From: Candidatus Uhrbacteria bacterium
GTDB taxonomy: Bacteria; Patescibacteriota; Patescibacteriia; UBA9934; GWF2-40-263
DNA length: 64,000 nucleotides
NCBI GenBank assembly: GCA_903843045.1
Contig: CAIMOJ010000046.1
Span: 650-64,649, forward strand
Reading direction: 5' to 3'
Shown: piece after piece, positions 11,873-42,673 of the stretch
How the letters are laid out: every line of letters starts with the position of its first letter
How positions within the stretch are numbered: position 1 is the stretch's first letter
The notes under the pieces: generated by a model
Seen by the model: the letters and a program-made list of their open reading frames with translations, nothing else
Told to the model about the DNA's origin: nothing
Databases searched by the model: none
Made by a program: the position numbers and the translations under genes

Positions 11873-11924
11873 CCCTCTCCTTTAAAAAGAGAGGGCTGGG
11901 GTGAGGTCTACGTCGTCTACGTCG
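11873..11924. repeat. Palindromic element family A, copy 1 (intergenic; its 3' end supplies the gltX stop codon)
   Basis: tccctctcctttaaaaagagagggctggggtgaggtctacgtcgtctacgtcg. Confidence 0.7.
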
Positions 11925-20065: not shown

Positions 20066-21943
20066 GTGATCGCGGAAATCTATCCAATCAAACGCATGCC
20101 GCGCCGGTTCGACGTTTTCGACTATCAGATCCCGGCCGGCATGAACCTCACTCGCGGATCCGGCGTCCGGATCCCGTTTCGGTTTGGAGAAATGCGCGGA
20201 ATCGTGGCGCATGTAACCGACGGCGCAGGACGCGGAAAGACGATAAAGCCGGTCTCCGCGATCCTGTCGGACCTTTCGATGACTGACGACGAGCTCTCGT
20301 GCTTCGAGGACGTCGCGTTCGACACGGCGCAGAGCGTTTCCGCCGTTCTCCACGCGACGATCCCGATCCCGGGAAAACGACTCGTTTCGCCCCCCTCTCC
20401 TTCAAAAGGAGAGGGCCGGGGTGAGGTCTACGTCTCGCCACTCACCATCTCTGCCCGCGAAGCCCCGCAAATCTCTCAGGTCGTCACGGAACTCTCCACC
20501 CGGTCCGAGGCGTTTGTCGCCATTCCTGACCTCAAGCGCGCCGCCGTCCTCATCGCGACCTACCGCCGTGACCACCCGACCGAACCCATCCTCGTCCTCG
20601 CGCCGAACGTTCGCGATGCGCGTCTCCTCGCGTCCCGACTCGCCGGAAACGAGACGGTCGTCGTGACCGGCGAGGAGTCCCCGGCCGAGCGCTTCCGCCG
20701 CTGGAAGCTCTGGCGCGGCCGGAAGACGGGTCTCCTCGTCGGTTCCCGCATGGCAGCCCTTTGGACGCACCCGACGCTCGGCGCGGTATTCCTCGTACGC
20801 TCGGGACACCCCAACCATAAGCAGAACGACCGCAATCCACGCTTCGACGCGCGATTCGTGGGACAGGTTCTCCATGAACGGCTTTCCGCCAAGCGCTTTC
20901 ACCTCGACGTCATGCCAAGCACCGAGGATCTCGTCGGCTTCGGCGCGGCGAACCTTCTCGGCTCGACCGCGCGACCGGAGACGATCATCGCCGACATGAC
21001 GATCGAGCGCGCCGGCTCTCCACACCCTTGCCTCGGCAACAGCCTCGTCATCGAAGTCGCCCAGACGCTCGCCGAGAACCGCCGCGTCATTTGCGCCTAC
21101 AACCTGAAGGGCGTGTCCCGACGACTGCAGTGCGCAGACTGCGGGCACCGGTTTCCGTGCGAGAATTGCGGAGGCGTCCTCGCCCCGTACGTGACCACGG
21201 TCCAATGCCACCGATGCGGACGAACCGAGCCGCTGCCGACCTCCTGCCCCGCATGCCACAAGAACAAACTGACGCCGAAAGGATTTGGAAATCGCGCGGT
21301 CGCTGCGGCCCTCCAGTCGGCGTTCCCCGAGGCAACCGTCGCCTGCCTCGACCGGGACACGGACGTGGATGGCGCGAAGGACGCGGACATCCTCGTCGTT
21401 ACGCGCCATTACGTCGAGAACGTCTTTGACCCGTTTCACCCGCCGGACGTCGGTCTCGTCGCCGAGCTTGAGGGAGACCGGTCCTTGTTCGAGCCGTCCT
21501 ACCGCGCCCTCGAGAAATCCCTGCTCAACGCCGAGGAGTGGCGCGGAATCGCCCACGCCTGCCGCGCGAGGTTCCTCATCCAGACCGAGATGCCCGATCT
21601 GTTCCGCAACGCCCTCTCGCAGCCGGAAAAGGCCCTTCTCGACGACCTTGCCATCCGCAAGTCCTACGCCCAGCCGCCGTATGTCCGCGCCATGACCGTC
21701 GACTTCAAGCCCGACGAGCCGGACGAACAAGCCCGAGGAATCGCAAAGGCCATCGAAGCTATCCGCGCCGTCTCCCCGTCGACGGACATCGCCAAGCTCC
21801 CCTCTCCTTTAAAAGGAGAGGGTCAGGGTGAGGTCTACGCCTCTCTACGTCTCACCGTCCCCCCGTCCGACGAGCGCGCCGTTCTCCAGGCCTTTTCCCC
21901 GCTCGACGACTCGTATATCATTGACACAAGGCCGTTGGAATGA
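20066..21943 (+). CDS. priA: Primosomal protein N' (PriA)-like, apparently lacking a canonical Walker A
   Basis: PriA-type Cys-rich zinc-binding region (CADCG..CENCG..CHRCG..CPACH), PriA-like 3'BD and C-terminal regions; two in-frame family A insertions. Confidence 0.55.
   Translation: MIAEIYPIKRMPRRFDVFDYQIPAGMNLTRGSGVRIPFRFGEMRGIVAHVTDGAGRGKTIKPVSAILSDLSMTDDELSCFEDVAFDTAQSVSAVLHATIPIPGKRLVSPPSPSKGEGRGEVYVSPLTISAREAPQISQVVTELSTRSEAFVAIPDLKRAAVLIATYRRDHPTEPILVLAPNVRDARLLASRLAGNETVVVTGEESPAERFRRWKLWRGRKTGLLVGSRMAALWTHPTLGAVFLVRSGHPNHKQNDRNPRFDARFVGQVLHERLSAKRFHLDVMPSTEDLVGFGAANLLGSTARPETIIADMTIERAGSPHPCLGNSLVIEVAQTLAENRRVICAYNLKGVSRRLQCADCGHRFPCENCGGVLAPYVTTVQCHRCGRTEPLPTSCPACHKNKLTPKGFGNRAVAAALQSAFPEATVACLDRDTDVDGAKDADILVVTRHYVENVFDPFHPPDVGLVAELEGDRSLFEPSYRALEKSLLNAEEWRGIAHACRARFLIQTEMPDLFRNALSQPEKALLDDLAIRKSYAQPPYVRAMTVDFKPDEPDEQARGIAKAIEAIRAVSPSTDIAKLPSPLKGEGQGEVYASLRLTVPPSDERAVLQAFSPLDDSYIIDTRPLE
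20392..20446. repeat. Palindromic element family A, copy 2 (in frame in priA: SPPSPSKGEGRGEVYVSPLT)
   Basis: cccctctccttcaaaaggagagggccggggtgaggtctacgtctcgccactcacc. Confidence 0.75.
21799..21856. repeat. Palindromic element family A, copy 3 (in frame near the priA C-terminus: LPSPLKGEGQGEVYASLRLT)
   Basis: cccctctcctttaaaaggagagggtcagggtgaggtctacgcctctctacgtctcacc. Confidence 0.75.
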
Positions 21944-21962: not shown

Positions 21963-22436
21963 ATGATCGTCCTCACGAATCCAAACCCCGAACTTCGCGT
22001 CCGATCCGTCGAGATTCCCTCGTCGGACATTGCTTCGGATCGTCTCAAGGCGATGATTGTCGACCTGAAGAGGACGATGAGGGAGGAAAACGGCTGCGGC
22101 ATCGCCGCGCCGCAGGTTGGGATCCACGAGCGCGTGATCATCGTCGACGACGGTTCGGGCCCGAAGGCATACATCAACCCGGAGATCGTCTCAAAGTCGT
22201 TCGCCACGTTCCTGTTCGAGGAGGGATGCCTGTCCGTACCGGGCGTCTGGGGCATGGTCAAGCGGCACAAGTCCGTAAAGGTCATGGCGATCGGAGAGGA
22301 CGGCAAGCCCGTAAAGATCTCCGGAAAGGGACTTCTGTCCGTCATCTTCCAGCATGAGATCGACCACCTCAACGGTGTCCTGTTCATCGACACGGTCCAG
22401 AAGATTACCCGCATGCCGAACAACTCAATCCTCTGA
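21963..22436 (+). CDS. def: Peptide deformylase
   Basis: Motifs GIAAPQVG, EGCLSVPG, QHEIDHLNG; the real start is MIVLTNP, internal to the 21828 ORF. Confidence 0.85.
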   Translation: MIVLTNPNPELRVRSVEIPSSDIASDRLKAMIVDLKRTMREENGCGIAAPQVGIHERVIIVDDGSGPKAYINPEIVSKSFATFLFEEGCLSVPGVWGMVKRHKSVKVMAIGEDGKPVKISGKGLLSVIFQHEIDHLNGVLFIDTVQKITRMPNNSIL

Positions 22437-22452
22437 TCCGCATTGTACTTGT

Positions 22453-23430
22453 ATGATTCGCATTGCGTTCTTTGGAACCCCCGAGTTCTCCGTCCCATTT
22501 TTAACGGCCCTTGTCGACGACCCCGCATTCGAGGTCGTCGCTGTCGTTTCACAGCCCGATCGTCCGTCCGGACGCAATCACGAGATCGTCCCGACCCCGG
22601 TCAAATCCGTCGCGCTGGACCACCAGATTCCGGTCCTGCAACCTTCGACCCTGCGCGATGAATCCGTCGCGACGACGCTTCGCTCCCTTGATGCGGACTA
22701 CTTTGTCGTGGTCGCCTATGGCAAGATCATCCCGCAGGCCGTCCTCGACGTCCCGCGGCTCGGCTGCGTCAACGTCCATCCTTCCCTCCTGCCGAAGTAC
22801 CGCGGCCCGTCCCCGATGAACTGGGCGATCGCGGAGGGCGACGCGACCACCGGCGTCACGATCATGCTGCTCGACGCGGGGATGGATACCGGACCGATCC
22901 TGTCCCAGACGAGCATCGGCCTTGATTCCGACGAGACGATGGAAACGCTCATGGCCAAGGCGCACGAGCAGGGCGTCCCGCTCCTCGTCGACGCGCTCAA
23001 GCGATTCGCGGCAGGCGAGATCGTCCCCGTCGCGCAAAACGACGAGCTCGCGACGATGACGAAGCTGCTCGACCGCGACGACGGCCGCGTCAACTGGACG
23101 CTTCCCATGGCAACGATCGAGCGACGCCTGCGCGCCTACCAGCCCTGGCCGGGACTCTGGACCGTCTGGACCCGCACGCTCCCCTCTCCTTTAAAAGGAG
23201 AGGGTCAGGGTGAGGTCTACGTCCGTTTGAAGATCCATTCCCTCCAACCGTCCGACTTCCGCGCCGACCTTCCGCCCGGAACCGTCTCAACGAAAAACAG
23301 TCGACTCTTCGTCGACTGTTCGGACGGGACGATCGAGATCCTTGAACTCCAGCCGGAAGGAAAACCCCGAATGTCCGCGGAAGCGTTCCTCCTGGGCTAT
23401 TCCGACGTGAACGGCGCCATGCTTGGCTGA
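22453..23430 (+). CDS. fmt: Methionyl-tRNA formyltransferase
   Basis: Formyltransferase N-domain (FFGTPEF...HPSLLPKYRG) and C-terminal domain; carries an in-frame family A insertion. Confidence 0.85.
   Translation: MIRIAFFGTPEFSVPFLTALVDDPAFEVVAVVSQPDRPSGRNHEIVPTPVKSVALDHQIPVLQPSTLRDESVATTLRSLDADYFVVVAYGKIIPQAVLDVPRLGCVNVHPSLLPKYRGPSPMNWAIAEGDATTGVTIMLLDAGMDTGPILSQTSIGLDSDETMETLMAKAHEQGVPLLVDALKRFAAGEIVPVAQNDELATMTKLLDRDDGRVNWTLPMATIERRLRAYQPWPGLWTVWTRTLPSPLKGEGQGEVYVRLKIHSLQPSDFRADLPPGTVSTKNSRLFVDCSDGTIEILELQPEGKPRMSAEAFLLGYSDVNGAMLG
23181..23221. repeat. Palindromic element family A, copy 4 (in frame in the fmt C-domain: LPSPLKGEGQGEVYV)
   Basis: cccctctcctttaaaaggagagggtcagggtgaggtctacg. 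Confidence 0.75.
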
Positions 23431-25803: not shown

Positions 25804-26501
25804 AGGCGGTGCTTCGTCGCGATAATCGTTCTGGCCTCGTCGTAGCGTCGAACCGACGACGGCCTCCAGCCAAGCCGGTGCCATGGAATCCGATAGATGA
25901 ACGACGGACGCCACTGGGAGATGCCCGGGCGGTCGGATCGGTCGATGACCTGGAACAGCTCACGGCCGACGAACGTCCCCGCATGGCCCCGCTCGAGCAT
26001 CGTGAGCCAGACATCCCAATCCTGGAAGCGCCTGATCGACGGGTCGAACCCGGGGAAATGCTCGCGGCGGACGAGCGACGTCGTGTGGACGAAGTTCATG
26101 CGGCGGAGTCGGTCCTCGTCGAACGAAAAGGACGAGAATGACTTCCAGCCGAATCGAAACCCGCTGTACGCGTAGCTCGCCTCCGGATGGTCGACAAGCG
26201 CCCGTTCCATCGTCGCGAGCATGTCCGGCGCCATGACCACGTCCGCGTCGCAGAAGATCACGAGGTCGCCGGTCGCCCGCGCGAACCCATTGTTCCGCGC
26301 GACGTTCCCGCCCTGGTTCGACTGCGTGACGATCGTGACGCGATCGGCAAACGCGGCGAGGACGCGTTCGGTCTCGTCCGTGCTGCCGTCGTTCACGACG
26401 ATGATCTCGTCGGGCTTCCGCGTCTGAACAAAAAGAGAGTTCAGGCACTCCGAGAGCGTCTTCGCGTGCTGGTAGGACGGGATGATGACGGAGATCGTCA
26501 C
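25800..26501 (-). CDS. GT2-family glycosyltransferase
   Basis: VIIPSYQHAKTLSECLNSL...VVNDGSTD...CDADV. Confidence 0.7.
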   Translation of the reverse strand: MTISVIIPSYQHAKTLSECLNSLFVQTRKPDEIIVVNDGSTDETERVLAAFADRVTIVTQSNQGGNVARNNGFARATGDLVIFCDADVVMAPDMLATMERALVDHPEASYAYSGFRFGWKSFSSFSFDEDRLRRMNFVHTTSLVRREHFPGFDPSIRRFQDWDVWLTMLERGHAGTFVGRELFQVIDRSDRPGISQWRPSFIYRIPWHRLGWRPSSVRRYDEARTIIATKHRL

Positions 26502-27583
26502 AGATATTCCTTCAATTTCTCAAGCTGTCTTTCGTTCGTAAACTCGTCGGCAGCCCGCCGATAGGCCGCTTCGCCCAGCCGCTGCCGTTCCGCGTCGCTC
26601 ATGGCCAGAAGATACACCGCGTCCGCGAGCGCCGCAATGTCCCCGTCCTTGACGAGAATGCCGGTTATTCCGTCGAGAACAGCCTCGTCGACGCCCCGCA
26701 TGTCCGTCGCAACCGACGGGACGCCGTGCAACGCGGCCTCGAGATACACCATGCCGAATCCCTCGCGGTCGACGGAATCCGCCACGACCGGCTCGACGAA
26801 TATGTCGGCGGCGGCGTAATGGTCGGAGAGCTGATCGTCGGCCACGTCGCGAGCGATCGTCACGCGGTCGTCGAGACCGAGCTCGGAGATGCGTCGCGCG
26901 ATCGTCTCGAGATAAGGCCCGTCGCCGACGATGTCGTATCGAATGTCGATCGCCGGCCACTGGCGGCGAAGCAATGCCATCGCGTCGAGAACGCGGACGT
27001 GTCCCTTGCGCGAGACGAGCCTTGCCACGGTCAGCAGGTTTACCGGACCGATCGCTCCAAGCATCCCAGCCCCCGGTCCCCTGACTCGTTTCCTCTCCTC
27101 ATAGGGAGGAGGGGTCAGGGGTGGTTGACGCGCTTCGACCGTCGGATACACGACAATCGTCCTCCTTACCCCAAACTCTTCTCTCACTTCCCTCTCCAGC
27201 GCCTTCGAGTTCGCGACGACAACCTTCGCCCCGCGCAGAACCATCCCCGCGACGATTCGCTTCATCCATCGCGTCTTCGCAAGCCCGACATCCATCCCAT
27301 GGACGATCACGACGTACGGCGTGCCCGTCATCCATCGGAAAACCATCGCCGCCGTCCCGATCGGAAGGACATGGCTAACCACGATCTGACTACCAACGCT
27401 TGGCATCGGTAGCAAACGTCGATCGCGAACAAACCGTCGAAGCGCCTGCCACCACCTGGTGGACGGATCAACAACCGTCACTTCCATCGAATCAGAAAAA
27501 TATGCGGTGAGATTCCCGAGATATCTTGCGACTCCGCCCCGCGATGGCGCGTAATCAGTCGTGTATAGCCGTGTCTTCGGCAT
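26498..27583 (-). CDS. GT4-family glycosyltransferase (GT-B fold)
   Basis: C-terminal EX7E motif (EGFGMVYLEAALHGVPSV); inter-domain linker carries a palindromic insertion and the N-domain a family C copy. Confidence 0.7.
   Translation of the reverse strand: MPKTRLYTTDYAPSRGGVARYLGNLTAYFSDSMEVTVVDPSTRWWQALRRFVRDRRLLPMPSVGSQIVVSHVLPIGTAAMVFRWMTGTPYVVIVHGMDVGLAKTRWMKRIVAGMVLRGAKVVVANSKALEREVREEFGVRRTIVVYPTVEARQPPLTPPPYEERKRVRGPGAGMLGAIGPVNLLTVARLVSRKGHVRVLDAMALLRRQWPAIDIRYDIVGDGPYLETIARRISELGLDDRVTIARDVADDQLSDHYAAADIFVEPVVADSVDREGFGMVYLEAALHGVPSVATDMRGVDEAVLDGITGILVKDGDIAALADAVYLLAMSDAERQRLGEAAYRRAADEFTNERQLEKLKEYL
27077..27120. repeat. Imperfect G/C-rich palindrome related to family A, in frame in the GT4 linker (QPPLTPPPYEERKRVRGPG)
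   Basis: cccctgactcgtttcctctcctcatagggaggaggggtcagggg. Confidence 0.5.
27397..27426. repeat. Palindromic element family C copy (in frame in GT4, encodes LLPMPSVGSQ on the minus strand)
   Basis: ctgactaccaacgcttggcatcggtagcaa. Confidence 0.5.
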
Positions 27584-29027
27584 AGGCGGTCTTTCGACGG
27601 ATAAGCCGCATGATGGCGGCAAAATGATGCTTTTGGACAGACCGGGACAACACGAGCATGACGGCATAGACGAATGCCGCGAACGGAAGAGCGAGGTAGA
27701 ATCCCGTCTCGGGACGAACGAGGCGCGTGGCGAATCCCATGGCGGCGGCGGAACAAATGATCGGAACGGTCGTCCTCATCAGTCGCGCGAACCCGTATTC
27801 CGGGATCACCCGGGGAACGAACCAGAAGCCGGCGACGAACAGGAAGGTGAAGCTGATCACGCCGGAATAGGCGGCTCCGAGGATTCCGAACGTCGGAATC
27901 AGGAAAAAGTTGCATATCACGTTGATGACCATCGTCACGCCCATCACCGCGGTCTTCGTTGCCTGCCGATTCGCGGCATTCAGGAGCGAGCCGACGGGAA
28001 AGTCGAGGAAGATGGGAATGAGGACGAAGATGAGGACCGCGAGTACCGGCGCGGCGTTCGCATACCCGTCCCCGGCAAGCGCGATCGCGTCCCCGGCAAC
28101 GGCCCAGAGACCGAACGCGATCGGGGCCGCGAGAATCGTCACGTACCAGACGGCCTCGTCGAACAGTCGCGTCAGGCCTTCCGTGTCCTTCTTCCCCACC
28201 ATCGCGCTCATTCCCGGATACAGCGCGGCGACGAATGCCATCGGGAGGAACTGGAACGCGTACGTGAACTTATAGGCCACGGCATAGACGCCGACCGCTG
28301 CGGTTCCGACGACCTTGGAGATGATGAGCGAATCGACGTACGAGTAAACCTTCACGAACATCCCGGCGAGGGCAAACGGGAGCGCGGCGAGCAATAACGA
28401 TCGAATCGCCTCTTTGTCGAATCTTGGTCGAAGAACGTTCCAGCCATAGATCGCAACGACATGGCGCGCGGAATAGAAGGCGTTGAACGTCGAGCCGACA
28501 AGGAGCGCGAGGACGAGTAGATGAAGCGACGGGTGCGTCAGAAGGACGATCCCGCCGAACAGGAGCGTGCACGTCTGTCCCACGAAGATCCCGAGCGACT
28601 CGAACCGCAGCGTGTGGTGTCCGCGCAGGACGCCGTAGAACAATAGGCTCATCGCGTCAGCAAGCATGACAAGCGACGCCACGAGGACGAGCTCGCGAAC
28701 GGTCGCATCGTATCCCAGCGCCCATGACATCGCCACCGCCCCGACCGTCGCCAGTACCATGAACGGAATCTTCAGCCAGACGGCCCGTCGGATCAGGTCC
28801 GCGGCGCGCTCCGGAACCTTCGCGACGTCGCGAATCACCACCGGCGTCACGCCAAGGTCGGTGATCGTCGAAAAGATCGTCGTAATCGAAAGCGCGAGGA
28901 AGTAATCCCCCGTCGCCTCGGGCCGCATCACGCGCGCGAGCAACAGGAAATAGAAGAACGCGAGGATCTTCTGCGCGATGGACGCGGCGGTGAGATAGAG
29001 GGTATTTTTTGCGACGGGCGAGGACAT
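27555..29027 (-). CDS. Wzx-type (MOP superfamily) polysaccharide flippase
   Basis: 490 aa, ~14 TM helices; N-terminal pattern typical of polysaccharide biosynthesis protein family. Confidence 0.65.
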   Translation of the reverse strand: MSSPVAKNTLYLTAASIAQKILAFFYFLLLARVMRPEATGDYFLALSITTIFSTITDLGVTPVVIRDVAKVPERAADLIRRAVWLKIPFMVLATVGAVAMSWALGYDATVRELVLVASLVMLADAMSLLFYGVLRGHHTLRFESLGIFVGQTCTLLFGGIVLLTHPSLHLLVLALLVGSTFNAFYSARHVVAIYGWNVLRPRFDKEAIRSLLLAALPFALAGMFVKVYSYVDSLIISKVVGTAAVGVYAVAYKFTYAFQFLPMAFVAALYPGMSAMVGKKDTEGLTRLFDEAVWYVTILAAPIAFGLWAVAGDAIALAGDGYANAAPVLAVLIFVLIPIFLDFPVGSLLNAANRQATKTAVMGVTMVINVICNFFLIPTFGILGAAYSGVISFTFLFVAGFWFVPRVIPEYGFARLMRTTVPIICSAAAMGFATRLVRPETGFYLALPFAAFVYAVMLVLSRSVQKHHFAAIMRLIRRKTAYAEDTAIHD

Positions 29028-41281: not shown

Positions 41282-42673
41282 ATGAAGCTTCTCCAGCCCA
41301 TCTCAGGCACCGTCGACCGGCTTGCACCGGACGGCAGCGGCGTGATCAATCGTCCCGAGGGAAAACCTTTTTTGATTTATAACGTGATTCCGGGCGAGGA
41401 GGTGACCGCGACAGTCGTGAAGCGCGGGCCGGACGGCGTGCGGGCGAAGCTCGACTCGATCGTCGTCGCGTCGCCGGACCGCGTCGCGCCGCGCTGCCCG
41501 TATGCCGGAACGTGCGGGGGGTGCAAGTGGCAGCACGTGGATTATACACGGCAGCGGACGGAGAAGCTGAATCGGCTGCGGTCGACCTTCGCGGAAGCTG
41601 CGACCGAGTGCCCCGTCGAATCCGTCGTCGCGTCGCCGGACCAATTCTACTACCGCAATCGCATGGACTTCACCTTCGGCCGCGACGGCGAGCTCGGTTT
41701 GAAGATGCCGGACAAATGGTGGGCCGCGCTCAACCTGGAGACATGCTACCTGCTCTCCCCCGAATCCGTCGAGATCGTCAACGCGGTCCGCGAGTGGGCA
41801 CGATCGACGGGATTGCCGTTCTGGGACGGAAAGACGCACGCGGGATTCTTCCGATATCTCGTGATCCGCGAGGGAAAGAACACGGGCGAGCGCATGGTGA
41901 CGCTCGTGACGGCGACGAACGACGCGTTTCGTCCCGAGGGACTCGTCGCCGCGATTGGAGACCGGGCGACTTCGATTGTTCACGGGATCAACGATGGCAT
42001 CACCGACCTCTCGATCTCCGACGTGCTCGTCCCGCTCAAGGGCAACCCGTTCATTCACGAGGAGATAAACGGCGTCCGGTTTAAGATCACGCCGAACGCG
42101 TTCTTCCAGACGAACTCGGCAATGGCCGCCAAGCTCCAGGACGAGGTCGTGCGCCACTGCGAGACAGCCGTCGTTGGCAAGACGAACCCGACCGTCCTCG
42201 ACCTCTACTGCGGATCGGGATTCTTCTCGCTCGCGTTGGCGAAGCGATCCTCGACGATCAAGGTCGTCGGCATCGAGGAAAACGCCGAGGCGATCGCCTG
42301 CGCCAAGGAAAACGTGGCCGCGAACGCCGTCGAGGCCGAGTACTTCGTCTCAAAGGCCGAGGAGTTCGACTGGAAGAGCTACGCCCCCGACGTCGTCATC
42401 GTCGACCCGCCGCGCGCCGGAATGCACCCAAAGGTCATCGAGACCCTCCTTGAGGCCGCGCCGCCGACGATCATTTACATTTCCTGCAAATACGAGCGCT
42501 TCCTGATGGAATGGAACGGAACCGCCAACAGCGCCCCGGCCCTCTCGACGAAATACCGCCTCGCCGACGCGGCCGCCCTCGACCTCTTCCCGCACACCCC
42601 GCACATCGAGTTCGTCGCCCGCCTCGAATCGCTCCCCTCTCCTTCAAAAGGAGAGGGACAGGGTGAGGTCTAA
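41282..42673 (+). CDS. RlmD/RumA-family 23S rRNA (uracil-5)-methyltransferase (TRAM + Fe-S + SAM MTase)
   Basis: TRAM N-domain, Cys cluster (CPYAGTCGGCKWQH), SAM motif LDLYCGSGFFSLA; C-terminus extended by a family A element that supplies the TAA stop. Confidence 0.75.
   Translation: MKLLQPISGTVDRLAPDGSGVINRPEGKPFLIYNVIPGEEVTATVVKRGPDGVRAKLDSIVVASPDRVAPRCPYAGTCGGCKWQHVDYTRQRTEKLNRLRSTFAEAATECPVESVVASPDQFYYRNRMDFTFGRDGELGLKMPDKWWAALNLETCYLLSPESVEIVNAVREWARSTGLPFWDGKTHAGFFRYLVIREGKNTGERMVTLVTATNDAFRPEGLVAAIGDRATSIVHGINDGITDLSISDVLVPLKGNPFIHEEINGVRFKITPNAFFQTNSAMAAKLQDEVVRHCETAVVGKTNPTVLDLYCGSGFFSLALAKRSSTIKVVGIEENAEAIACAKENVAANAVEAEYFVSKAEEFDWKSYAPDVVIVDPPRAGMHPKVIETLLEAAPPTIIYISCKYERFLMEWNGTANSAPALSTKYRLADAAALDLFPHTPHIEFVARLESLPSPSKGEGQGEV
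42634..42673. repeat. Palindromic element family A, copy 5 (encodes C-terminal LPSPSKGEGQGEV* of the rlmD-like gene)
   Basis: cccctctccttcaaaaggagagggacagggtgaggtctaa. Confidence 0.75.

Follow-up and report, generated by a model that had tools for sequence, protein, structure and literature searches.

In a Candidatus Uhrbacteria bacterium, the priA-like gene encodes a PriA homologue from which the ATPase and helicase motifs are gone and which carries, at two points, in-frame copies of a small dispersed repeat. The gene lies at positions 20066–21943 of the + strand in a 64,000-nucleotide stretch of contig CAIMOJ010000046.1 (the whole stretch is hereafter the window; G+C ~61%), where an open reading frame (ORF) with a GTG start encodes 625 amino acids. 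Its product still has the 3'-end-binding domain (3'BD) with the FDY pocket, both RecA-like lobes to serve as scaffold, a counterpart of the aromatic-rich loop, the Cys-rich region (CRR) and the C-terminal domain; gone are the P-loop, the DExH box and the residues of motifs V and VI. Neither insert is part of PriA itself: each is a copy of a small dispersed element that belongs to the BoxC/PIT/TM_ECO class. The explanation that we favour, and that as a whole we hold to be very probable, is a fork-binding PriA without a motor, whose loops tolerate dispersed inserts of the triplex class.

The protein is recognizable as PriA in both its sequence and its predicted fold. Its N-terminus, MIAEIYPIKRMPRRF, agrees with those of its homologues, and its sole Pfam domain is the PriA 3'-end-binding domain (PF17764; E = 2.3e-10, 40.6 bits against a cut-off of 22.7); no helicase domain (PF00270, PF00271) is detected in it by Pfam. 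The NCBIfam equivalog models for PriA match at E-values of 1e-38 to 1e-20, yet their scores lie far under the curated cut-offs (127.8 bits against 230.35 for TIGR00595, 131 against 813 for NF004066), and the equivalog cut-off is not reached. When searched against the PDB with phmmer, residues 205–572 align to Klebsiella PriA (4nl4; E = 1.4e-26) and residues 12–69 to the 3'BD of the same structure. The AlphaFold2 model, built with 48 homologues, has a mean predicted local distance difference test (pLDDT) score of 90.9 and a predicted template modelling score of 0.88, and the best nine Foldseek matches to it in the PDB are all PriA (E = 3.6e-36 to 1.6e-28; template modelling scores 0.60–0.72), led by 6dcr, 8fak and 4nl4 from E. 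coli and Klebsiella. Model and matches together display the PriA architecture of two RecA-like lobes, a Cys-rich region within lobe 2 and a C-terminal domain. A winged-helix domain is absent, since the spacing between 3'BD and lobe 1 is only ~30 residues; that the first Foldseek match is a winged-helix-deletion form of E. coli PriA agrees with this.

The retained features are those tied to fork recognition. The 3'BD (residues 1–100; 20066–20365, + strand) holds an invariant pocket, F18-D19-Y20, aligned to the FDY of Klebsiella PriA; in E. coli PriA, D17 touches the nascent leading strand at its 3' end (PMC5175346). The zinc region (residues 356–397; 21131–21256, + strand) consists of four CxxC pairs aligned to the CRR of PriA, and all the cysteines of a two-zinc CRR (C356, C359, C365, C368, C381, C384, C394 and C397) are present and nearly invariant. 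A KQ...R(F/Y)xAR segment is the counterpart of the aromatic-rich loop of E. coli PriA, K328–Y335, which cross-links to the fork junction.

The motor motifs, by contrast with these retained features, are lost. Regular-expression scans for GxxxxGK[ST] and DE.H found no match anywhere in the protein, and an alignment with the canonical PriAs P0045 and P0048 and with 4nl4 reveals what has taken their place: canonical motif I, GVTGSGKTEVY, is here AIPDLKRAAVL; motif Ia, PEISLT, is PNVRDA; motif II, DEEHD, is VRSGH; motif III, SATP, is VMPS; motif V, GTQMIAKGHDFP, is VTRHYVENVFDPF, within which GTQMIAKGH has become VTRHYVENV; and motif VI, SGRAGRG, with its arginine finger GRAGR, is WRGIAHA. The former Walker A position (AIPDLKRAA, residues 152–160; 20519–20545, + strand) aligns to the GVTGSGKTE of P0045 and P0048 and has the family consensus PDL(R/K)R. 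The former Walker B (VRSGH) and the retained aromatic-rich-loop equivalent, HKQNDRNPRFDAR, occupy residues 243–263 (20792–20854, + strand) and align to vidEEHDssyKQQ-egWRYhAR of Klebsiella PriA, with N257, P258 and R259 invariant and a mean conservation of 0.73 against 0.55 overall. The stretch that comprises former motifs V and VI (VTRHYVENVFDPF ... EEWRGIAHAC, residues 440–500; 21383–21565, + strand), aligned to GTQMIAKGHDFP and SGRAGRG, has a family conservation of 0.69–0.73. The only GK[ST] in the protein, within 'GRGKT' at residues 56–60, was considered as a cryptic P-loop and rejected as a look-alike, because its spacing (GxxxGKT) does not fit a P-loop, its place is a 3'BD loop and homologues do not conserve it.

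Judged from sequence comparison, the loss of these motifs is a conserved, lineage-wide state and not private decay. Among four priA orthologues, the pairwise ratio of non-synonymous to synonymous substitution rates (dN/dS) is 0.10–0.145, with dS reaching ~1. A family profile made from 38 members and searched against 1.84 billion cluster representatives recovered 8195 proteins at E < 1e-30, and both Walker motifs are missing in every one of the best 150 of these 8195 (150/150; E < 1e-88, mostly 520–650 residues). They are likewise both missing in 180/189 proteins, and the 6/189 in which both are present are long canonical PriAs. In the family alignment, the frequency of the top residue is 0.63–0.75 at the former motif regions against 0.55 for the whole protein, and, beside PDL(R/K)R, the replacement motifs have the consensus RSGHPNHKQxDRNPRFDAR, VTRHYxENxFDPF and EEWRG. 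The low dN/dS, the family-wide absence of the motifs and the above-average conservation of the regions that once held them all argue against decay. Among distant members, P0144, P0151, P0166, P0173 and P0180 (alignment A4) have a DDEE/DQAE-like remnant at the Walker B position and P0144 has G-D-F-R-K-K-T (G..RKKT) at the P-loop position, and these remnants suggest that the ATP site may have eroded in graded steps across the family. A subgroup of ~535–565 residues (P0039, P0066, P0070, P0072, P0075–P0077 and others) also lacks all four CxxC pairs, and proteins of this P0039/P0066 type are thus without both motor and zinc module. In a cluster look-up of 10 distant members, one was assigned to 'Patescibacteria group bacterium', and the breadth of the family beyond Uhrbacteria is poorly defined; a second protein search, made with the diverse alignment A4, gave the same 47 proteins and no others.

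A sequence-only reading of this DNA had noted that the gene shows no Walker A motif although its Cys-rich zinc module is intact, and had proposed either a degenerate, ATPase-dead PriA that tolerates selfish insertions or a lineage-specific primosome protein. Its observation on Walker A was borne out by the regular-expression scan and the alignment to canonical PriA, and that on the zinc module by the finding of 8/8 cysteines. The profile searches and structure prediction that it suggested recovered a PriA homologue and a PriA fold, with helicase motifs I–VI not detected, and the comparison with related genomes, likewise suggested there, found the loss of motifs I and II to be common to relatives. 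The first of its two proposals holds for the absence of the motifs and fails in the word 'degenerate', since dN/dS and conservation indicate a conserved pseudohelicase; as the loss is shared by the lineage, the two alternatives are true together.

The repeat within priA, here called type A, is an element of ~39 nt that occurs at five loci in the window (10 matches if both strands of the palindrome are counted), where chance alone would give 0.01. All five copies are on the + strand and start at 11873, 20393, 21800, 23182 and 42635. The form of the element is CCCTCTCCTT, a 3-nt loop, AAGGAGAGGG, a second 3-nt loop and GGGTGAGGT, then CTAC: a hairpin joined by a third G-rich block, and therefore not a plain palindrome. 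Insert 1 (20393–20431, + strand) encodes residues 110–122, PSPSKGEGRGEVY, in the linker between 3'BD and lobe 1; its blocks are CCCTCTCCTT at 20393–20402, AAGGAGAGGG at 20406–20415 and GGGTGAGGT at 20419–20427, with the tail CTAC. Insert 2 (21800–21838, + strand) encodes residues 579–591, PSPLKGEGQGEVY, in a beta-hairpin loop of the C-terminal domain. The RNA hairpins formed by the element are stable (-19 to -24 kcal/mol). Four of the five copies lie inside ORFs, and all four begin at codon position 1 (at residues 110 and 579 of PriA, in fmt and in an RNA methyltransferase gene); the phase that they occupy is the sole sense phase that is stop-free in every copy, and it encodes a hydrophilic Pro/Gly-rich peptide, PSPxKGEGxGEVY. 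From the stop-free phase and the position in linkers and loops, the copies would be both translated and tolerated, and we infer that copies last inside genes only in this phase and only in such places. The whole window has no Rfam match at gathering thresholds, which sets the element apart from the RNA families described so far.

Only where the inserts lie does the AlphaFold2 model fall to low confidence. The blocks that make up residues 101–120 have mean pLDDT values of 73 and 51, with values below 50 at residues 113–117, and the block of residues 581–590 has a mean of 61. The same inserts are the least conserved columns of the family alignment (0.13–0.14).

Comparison among orthologues demonstrates turnover: a given site may be empty, may hold the same element or may hold another. 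Among named organisms, those with the closest relatives of the protein are Candidatus Uhrbacteria, which belong to the candidate phyla radiation (CPR; Patescibacteria), and an orthologue 90% identical to the window priA is found on a contig of the Uhrbacteria metagenome-assembled genome ELA555 (L001, which is the same as L079), a second, 82% identical, in L002. Among the window, L001, L002, L003 and nzgw368 (L077), the N-terminal linker holds type A in the window and in L077 and a different element, type B, in L001, and is empty in L002 and L003. The C-terminal loop holds type A in the window and in L001, is empty in L002 and L003 and is not covered in L077. A further site, after 'ASRL' (20640–20655 in the window, 4560–4600 in L001, 1720–1760 in L002), is filled by type B in L001 and L002, is empty in the window and L003 and is again not covered in L077. 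Insert 2 is common to L001/L079, and the filled C-terminal site differs from the empty one by a net +39 nt; the copy in fmt adds 11 residues relative to the fmt of ELA555. No target-site duplication or sharp insertion boundary was found in the DNA alignments of filled against empty sites, and the right-hand junction has short similarity between the 3' end of the element and host sequence, such as the GGTCGTCG shared at site 3. An assembly artefact as the source of the inserts was rejected, because the same inserts are present in independent assemblies (L001/L079 and L077).

Type B has the form CCCCTCCTC-ATAGG-GAGGAGGGG-TCA-GGGGTGGTC, with the same three-block relationship as type A and a different sequence; the priA genes of L001 and L002 contain it, and the window has one copy. 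That the type-B insert after 'ASRL' is common to relatives of 90% and 82% identity and missing from the window is incongruent with their overall relatedness; insertion hot spots, precise loss and recombination are all possible causes of this and of the mixed filling of the N-terminal linker. The window copy, CTCTCCTC-ATAGG-GAGGAGGGG-TCA-GGGGTGG (27093–27124, + strand), lies in a minus-strand glycosyltransferase-like ORF (26498–27667), where it is read antisense, in frame, as PPLTPPPYEER.

On the inserts, the sequence-only reading had described the stretch 20392–21856 as priA with two in-frame palindromic insertions. This interval does lie inside the priA-like ORF, and spans just insert 1 to insert 2, the ORF itself being 20066–21943. 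Two in-frame copies are indeed present, and in place of a simple palindrome they have an intrastrand-triplex motif. The suggestion that PriA is 'tolerating' them accords with inserts in low-confidence loops and with close orthologues in which the sites are empty or otherwise filled.

The triplex assignment rests on a three-block test: a pyrimidine block, a complementary purine block and a third block that is mirror-related to the purine block are all present, and the nine triads that they would form are allowed by the purine-motif code. This is the arrangement of the BoxC/PIT/TM_ECO motif, of which Hoyne and Maher reportedly published a study in 2000. The motif has the pattern CCCTCNCCC-N3-6-GGGNGAGGG-N3-GGGNGAGGG (Holder et al., 2015, PMC4666352), and the isolated TM_ECO strand folds in vitro into a stable intrastrand triplex of the purine-motif kind; there are 3610 occurrences in 262 proteobacterial genomes, always intergenic in E. 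coli K-12, and the census is one of proteobacteria, with related G/C-rich motifs reported in cyanobacteria and CPR not covered (PMC4666352). The sequences of the two are nearly the same and can be written together as CCCTCTCC(C/T) - loop - (G/A)GGAGAGGG - 3-nt loop - GGGTGAGG(G/T); type A matches the published pattern at 8/9 positions per block, and the ninth is changed in all three blocks, so that the C-G*G triad of TM_ECO becomes T-A*T, an allowed triad too, and T-A*A in other phyla. Both elements are dispersed, multi-copy and very widely distributed, without a linked transposase; they differ in that TM_ECO is intergenic in E. coli, whereas 4/5 copies of type A in the window lie in ORFs.

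A scan of public genomes (one genome per species) for an exact 33-nt pattern with 28 specified bases found it in at least 104 DNA stretches (L004–L107) from at least a dozen phyla, with flanks that are unrelated between taxa. Among the matches listed are Uhrbacteria, other Patescibacteria (several CPR classes), Nitrospirota, Elusimicrobia, Bacteroidota, Ignavibacteriales, Cyanobacteria (Nostoc, Anabaena), Melainabacteria, Chloroflexi, Armatimonadota, Verrucomicrobia, Zixibacteria and Acinetobacter. At 114 instances among these matches, the unconstrained base after GGGTGAGG is T 91 times, A 21 times, G twice and never C; as the triplex code allows T and A opposite an A-T pair, this predominance supports the triplex reading, though not decisively, since shared ancestry or A+T-rich flanks could contribute. 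In other Uhrbacteria loci, again among the matches listed, ~19/27 copies are inside long ORFs and mostly in the same phase. In-frame hosts verified by Pfam are ValRS, CysRS, PGM/PMM, class II ribonucleotide reductase, a TraG-like ATPase, a GT4 glycosyltransferase and ApbE, in which the inserts fall mostly between domains; a Cytophagia genome adds one more in-gene case, in a hydantoinase B gene. Of the copies listed from other phyla, those in low-G+C genomes are mostly found in short open frames, a hint that they are intergenic. Some copies (L063, L074) form full, long hairpins that include an upstream arm, CCTCACCC.

For repeat DNA that is translated within genes, the precedent is the Rickettsia palindromic element (RPE), which lies in frame in many housekeeping genes (PMC10969869). 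Type A resembles it in being in frame in unrelated genes and in encoding a peptide that is compatible with the fold. RPEs, however, are ~100–150 bp long and specific to Rickettsia, whereas type A is ~35–45 nt long and spread across phyla, has no evident sequence similarity to RPEs and is of the triplex type, not simply palindromic; at this length it is an analogue of the RPE and not a member.

The closest parallel for the protein is Deinococcus radiodurans PriA (Lopper et al., 2015, PMC4504706), which has non-consensus Walker boxes (GKT changed to GRT) and neither ATPase nor helicase activity, binds single-stranded DNA and forks normally and contacts DnaB. According to a 2017 review, the PriA helicase is conserved with a single exception, Deinococcus (PMC5778457). 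The Uhrbacteria protein is, like the Deinococcus one, a conserved orthologue with non-consensus motifs I and II, its loss is lineage-wide, and an Arg aligns at the position of the catalytic Lys. Its loss goes much further than that of the Deinococcus protein: the whole glycine-rich P-loop is gone, motifs V and VI have been replaced and no Pfam helicase domain is left. The Uhrbacteria protein is also short, lacks a winged-helix domain and belongs to another phylum (Patescibacteria/CPR). A functional model is offered by E. coli priA300 (K230R), an ATPase-dead form whose phenotype in vivo is close to wild type and which supports restart by the PriA-PriB pathway (PMC5778457): though dead as ATPase and helicase, it still assembles primosomes, and the Uhrbacteria protein would probably work in the same way. 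The difference is that K230R is an engineered single substitution in a canonical enzyme, and that E. coli has the partners PriB, DnaT and PriC. Literature searches found nothing linking PriA with Patescibacteria/CPR, and nothing on triplex or palindromic repeats within CPR coding genes.

With its motifs gone, the Uhrbacteria protein is probably unable to hydrolyse ATP or unwind DNA. Because D. radiodurans PriA and E. coli K230R work without ATPase, it would most likely recognize abandoned forks and, while leaving their structure unremodelled, passively provide the platform on which the replicative helicase is reloaded. Several points weigh against our overall interpretation. Loss of ATPase activity is deduced from the motifs, translation of the inserts from their frame and their avoidance of stop codons, and the selfish, mobile character of the element by argument, a target-site duplication and an associated transposase not having been found. 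A second, canonical PriA could be encoded elsewhere in the genome, our survey covering the window and short loci. Finally, the strong conservation of PDLKR, RSGHPNHKQ, VTRHYxENxFDPF and EEWRG could reflect a cleft that is not simply locked but has gained a different ligand or function.

Several other readings start from these same observations. A functionless, decaying priA that gathers junk insertions would account for the absence of every catalytic motif, for the repeat DNA within the ORF and for the NCBIfam scores far under their cut-offs. However, the ORF is intact in all orthologues with a dN/dS of 0.10–0.14, the predicted fold is of high confidence, more than 150 divergent cluster representatives share the architecture, the former motif regions are conserved above average and the inserts never introduce stops; the dN/dS and the family conservation led us to reject a pseudogene, which is essentially refuted and the least probable of all the readings. 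We also think it improbable that the gene is a divergent paralogue with a new role, with a motor-competent PriA or another restart helicase encoded elsewhere: the strongly conserved replacement motifs do suggest a new function, and the survey took in the window and short loci, but the gene sits in a priA-def-fmt cluster that is conserved in the close relatives L001 and L003, and canonical PriA was met in the searches only at 27% identity or less, the sole organism-named one being from Pirellulales. It is very unlikely that nucleotide is still used at some non-canonical site to which the conserved replacement motifs contribute. The sequences at the former cleft are conserved, and a DDEE-like Walker B remnant persists in distant members, with G..RKKT in one, but there is neither a P-loop-like glycine-rich loop nor an arginine finger, motifs I, II, V and VI are all altered together, and a change of K to R alone kills the ATPase of E. 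coli PriA (PMC4504706, PMC5778457).

The inserts themselves might be under selection, either as flexible linkers that tune PriA or as structures that modulate priA-def-fmt expression or mark recombination sites. The stability of the hairpins, the filling of the N-terminal linker in 3/5 orthologues by two element types and the retention of the C-terminal insert between genomes at a dS of 0.4 speak for this. Set against them are the occurrence of the same element in many unrelated genes and in intergenic DNA, the otherwise conserved sequence of orthologues with empty sites, the position of the peptide in the least conserved part of the alignment and the lack of promoter or terminator activity of PIT elements in E. 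coli (PMC4666352), and we regard selection on the inserts as unlikely. Somewhat less likely again is a more elaborate reading, in which PriA of Uhrbacteria and related Patescibacteria is a nucleotide-independent adaptor for fork recognition, its former ATP cleft having gained a new, conserved function, and the proteome is being colonized in frame by triplex repeats that occur in many phyla and had so far been regarded as intergenic, the two being possibly linked; if it were true, the link would be that a lineage rich in fork-stalling non-B DNA restarts replication without a PriA motor. A motorless, fork-binding PriA with tolerated inserts in its loops thus remains the explanation that we prefer.

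The gene is the priA of its lineage and sits within a priA-def-fmt cluster. The local order is a LigB-family gene, priA, def and fmt; beyond fmt, genes for a Wzy_C-like membrane protein and glycosyltransferases run on the opposite strand. The same order around priA-def-fmt is kept in L001 and L003, and priA-def-fmt is also the arrangement known in Bacillus subtilis. Directly 3' of priA, the ORF at 21963–22436 (+ strand) is def, encoding peptide deformylase (PF01327 in the L001 orthologue), and fmt (methionyl-tRNA formyltransferase; 22453–23430, + strand; PF00551 and PF02911) contains the third in-frame type-A copy, at 23182–23220.

Beyond the cluster, the copy at 42635–42673 (+ strand) ends a uracil-5 RNA methyltransferase gene (41282–42673, PF05958): its tail reads TCTAA for TCTAC, and the element therefore provides the last 12 codons and the TAA stop. 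'GEV-stop' also ends long ORFs in two other Uhrbacteria loci (L004, L093), where the element again forms C-terminal tails. The copy at 11873–11911 (+ strand), the only intergenic one of type A, lies where two minus-strand genes, one for an M23 peptidase (at its start) and gltX (at its end), are 57 nt apart; with one mismatch in its stem (AAAAAGAGAGGG) and only weak folding (-13.4 kcal/mol, z -0.4), it may be a decaying copy. Block 2 of the element reads AAAGGAGAGGG (for example in the core 21812–21830) and is Shine-Dalgarno-like, with a GTG 9–10 nt later in another frame, which accounts for spurious ORF starts at 20421, 21828 and 11901. The G-rich blocks of 5/5 copies are on the + strand, in a window of negative GC skew; at p ~0.06, the copies are too few to establish a bias by replication strand or transcription strand.

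Both components of this gene are thus of known kinds, and each is a variant not found in the literature searched. After Deinococcus, the family is a second and much larger group of PriA pseudohelicases, with at least 180 clusters at 50% identity in Uhrbacteria and other Patescibacteria, in which the motor appears to have been erased and not merely crippled, while the features of fork recognition and the zinc module were kept. As such, it supports the view that the core job of PriA is fork recognition and scaffolding, and it offers structural biologists and biochemists a natural minimal PriA, with no winged helix, no ATPase motifs and, in the case of some relatives, not even the Cys-rich region. 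The inserts, for their part, place the BoxC/PIT/TM motif, intergenic in E. coli, inside essential genes and in one phase in a CPR lineage, and would extend the concept of selfish DNA in protein-coding genes beyond Rickettsia. Their natural three-way compensated variants bear on whether the triplex or the hairpin is the feature that is conserved.

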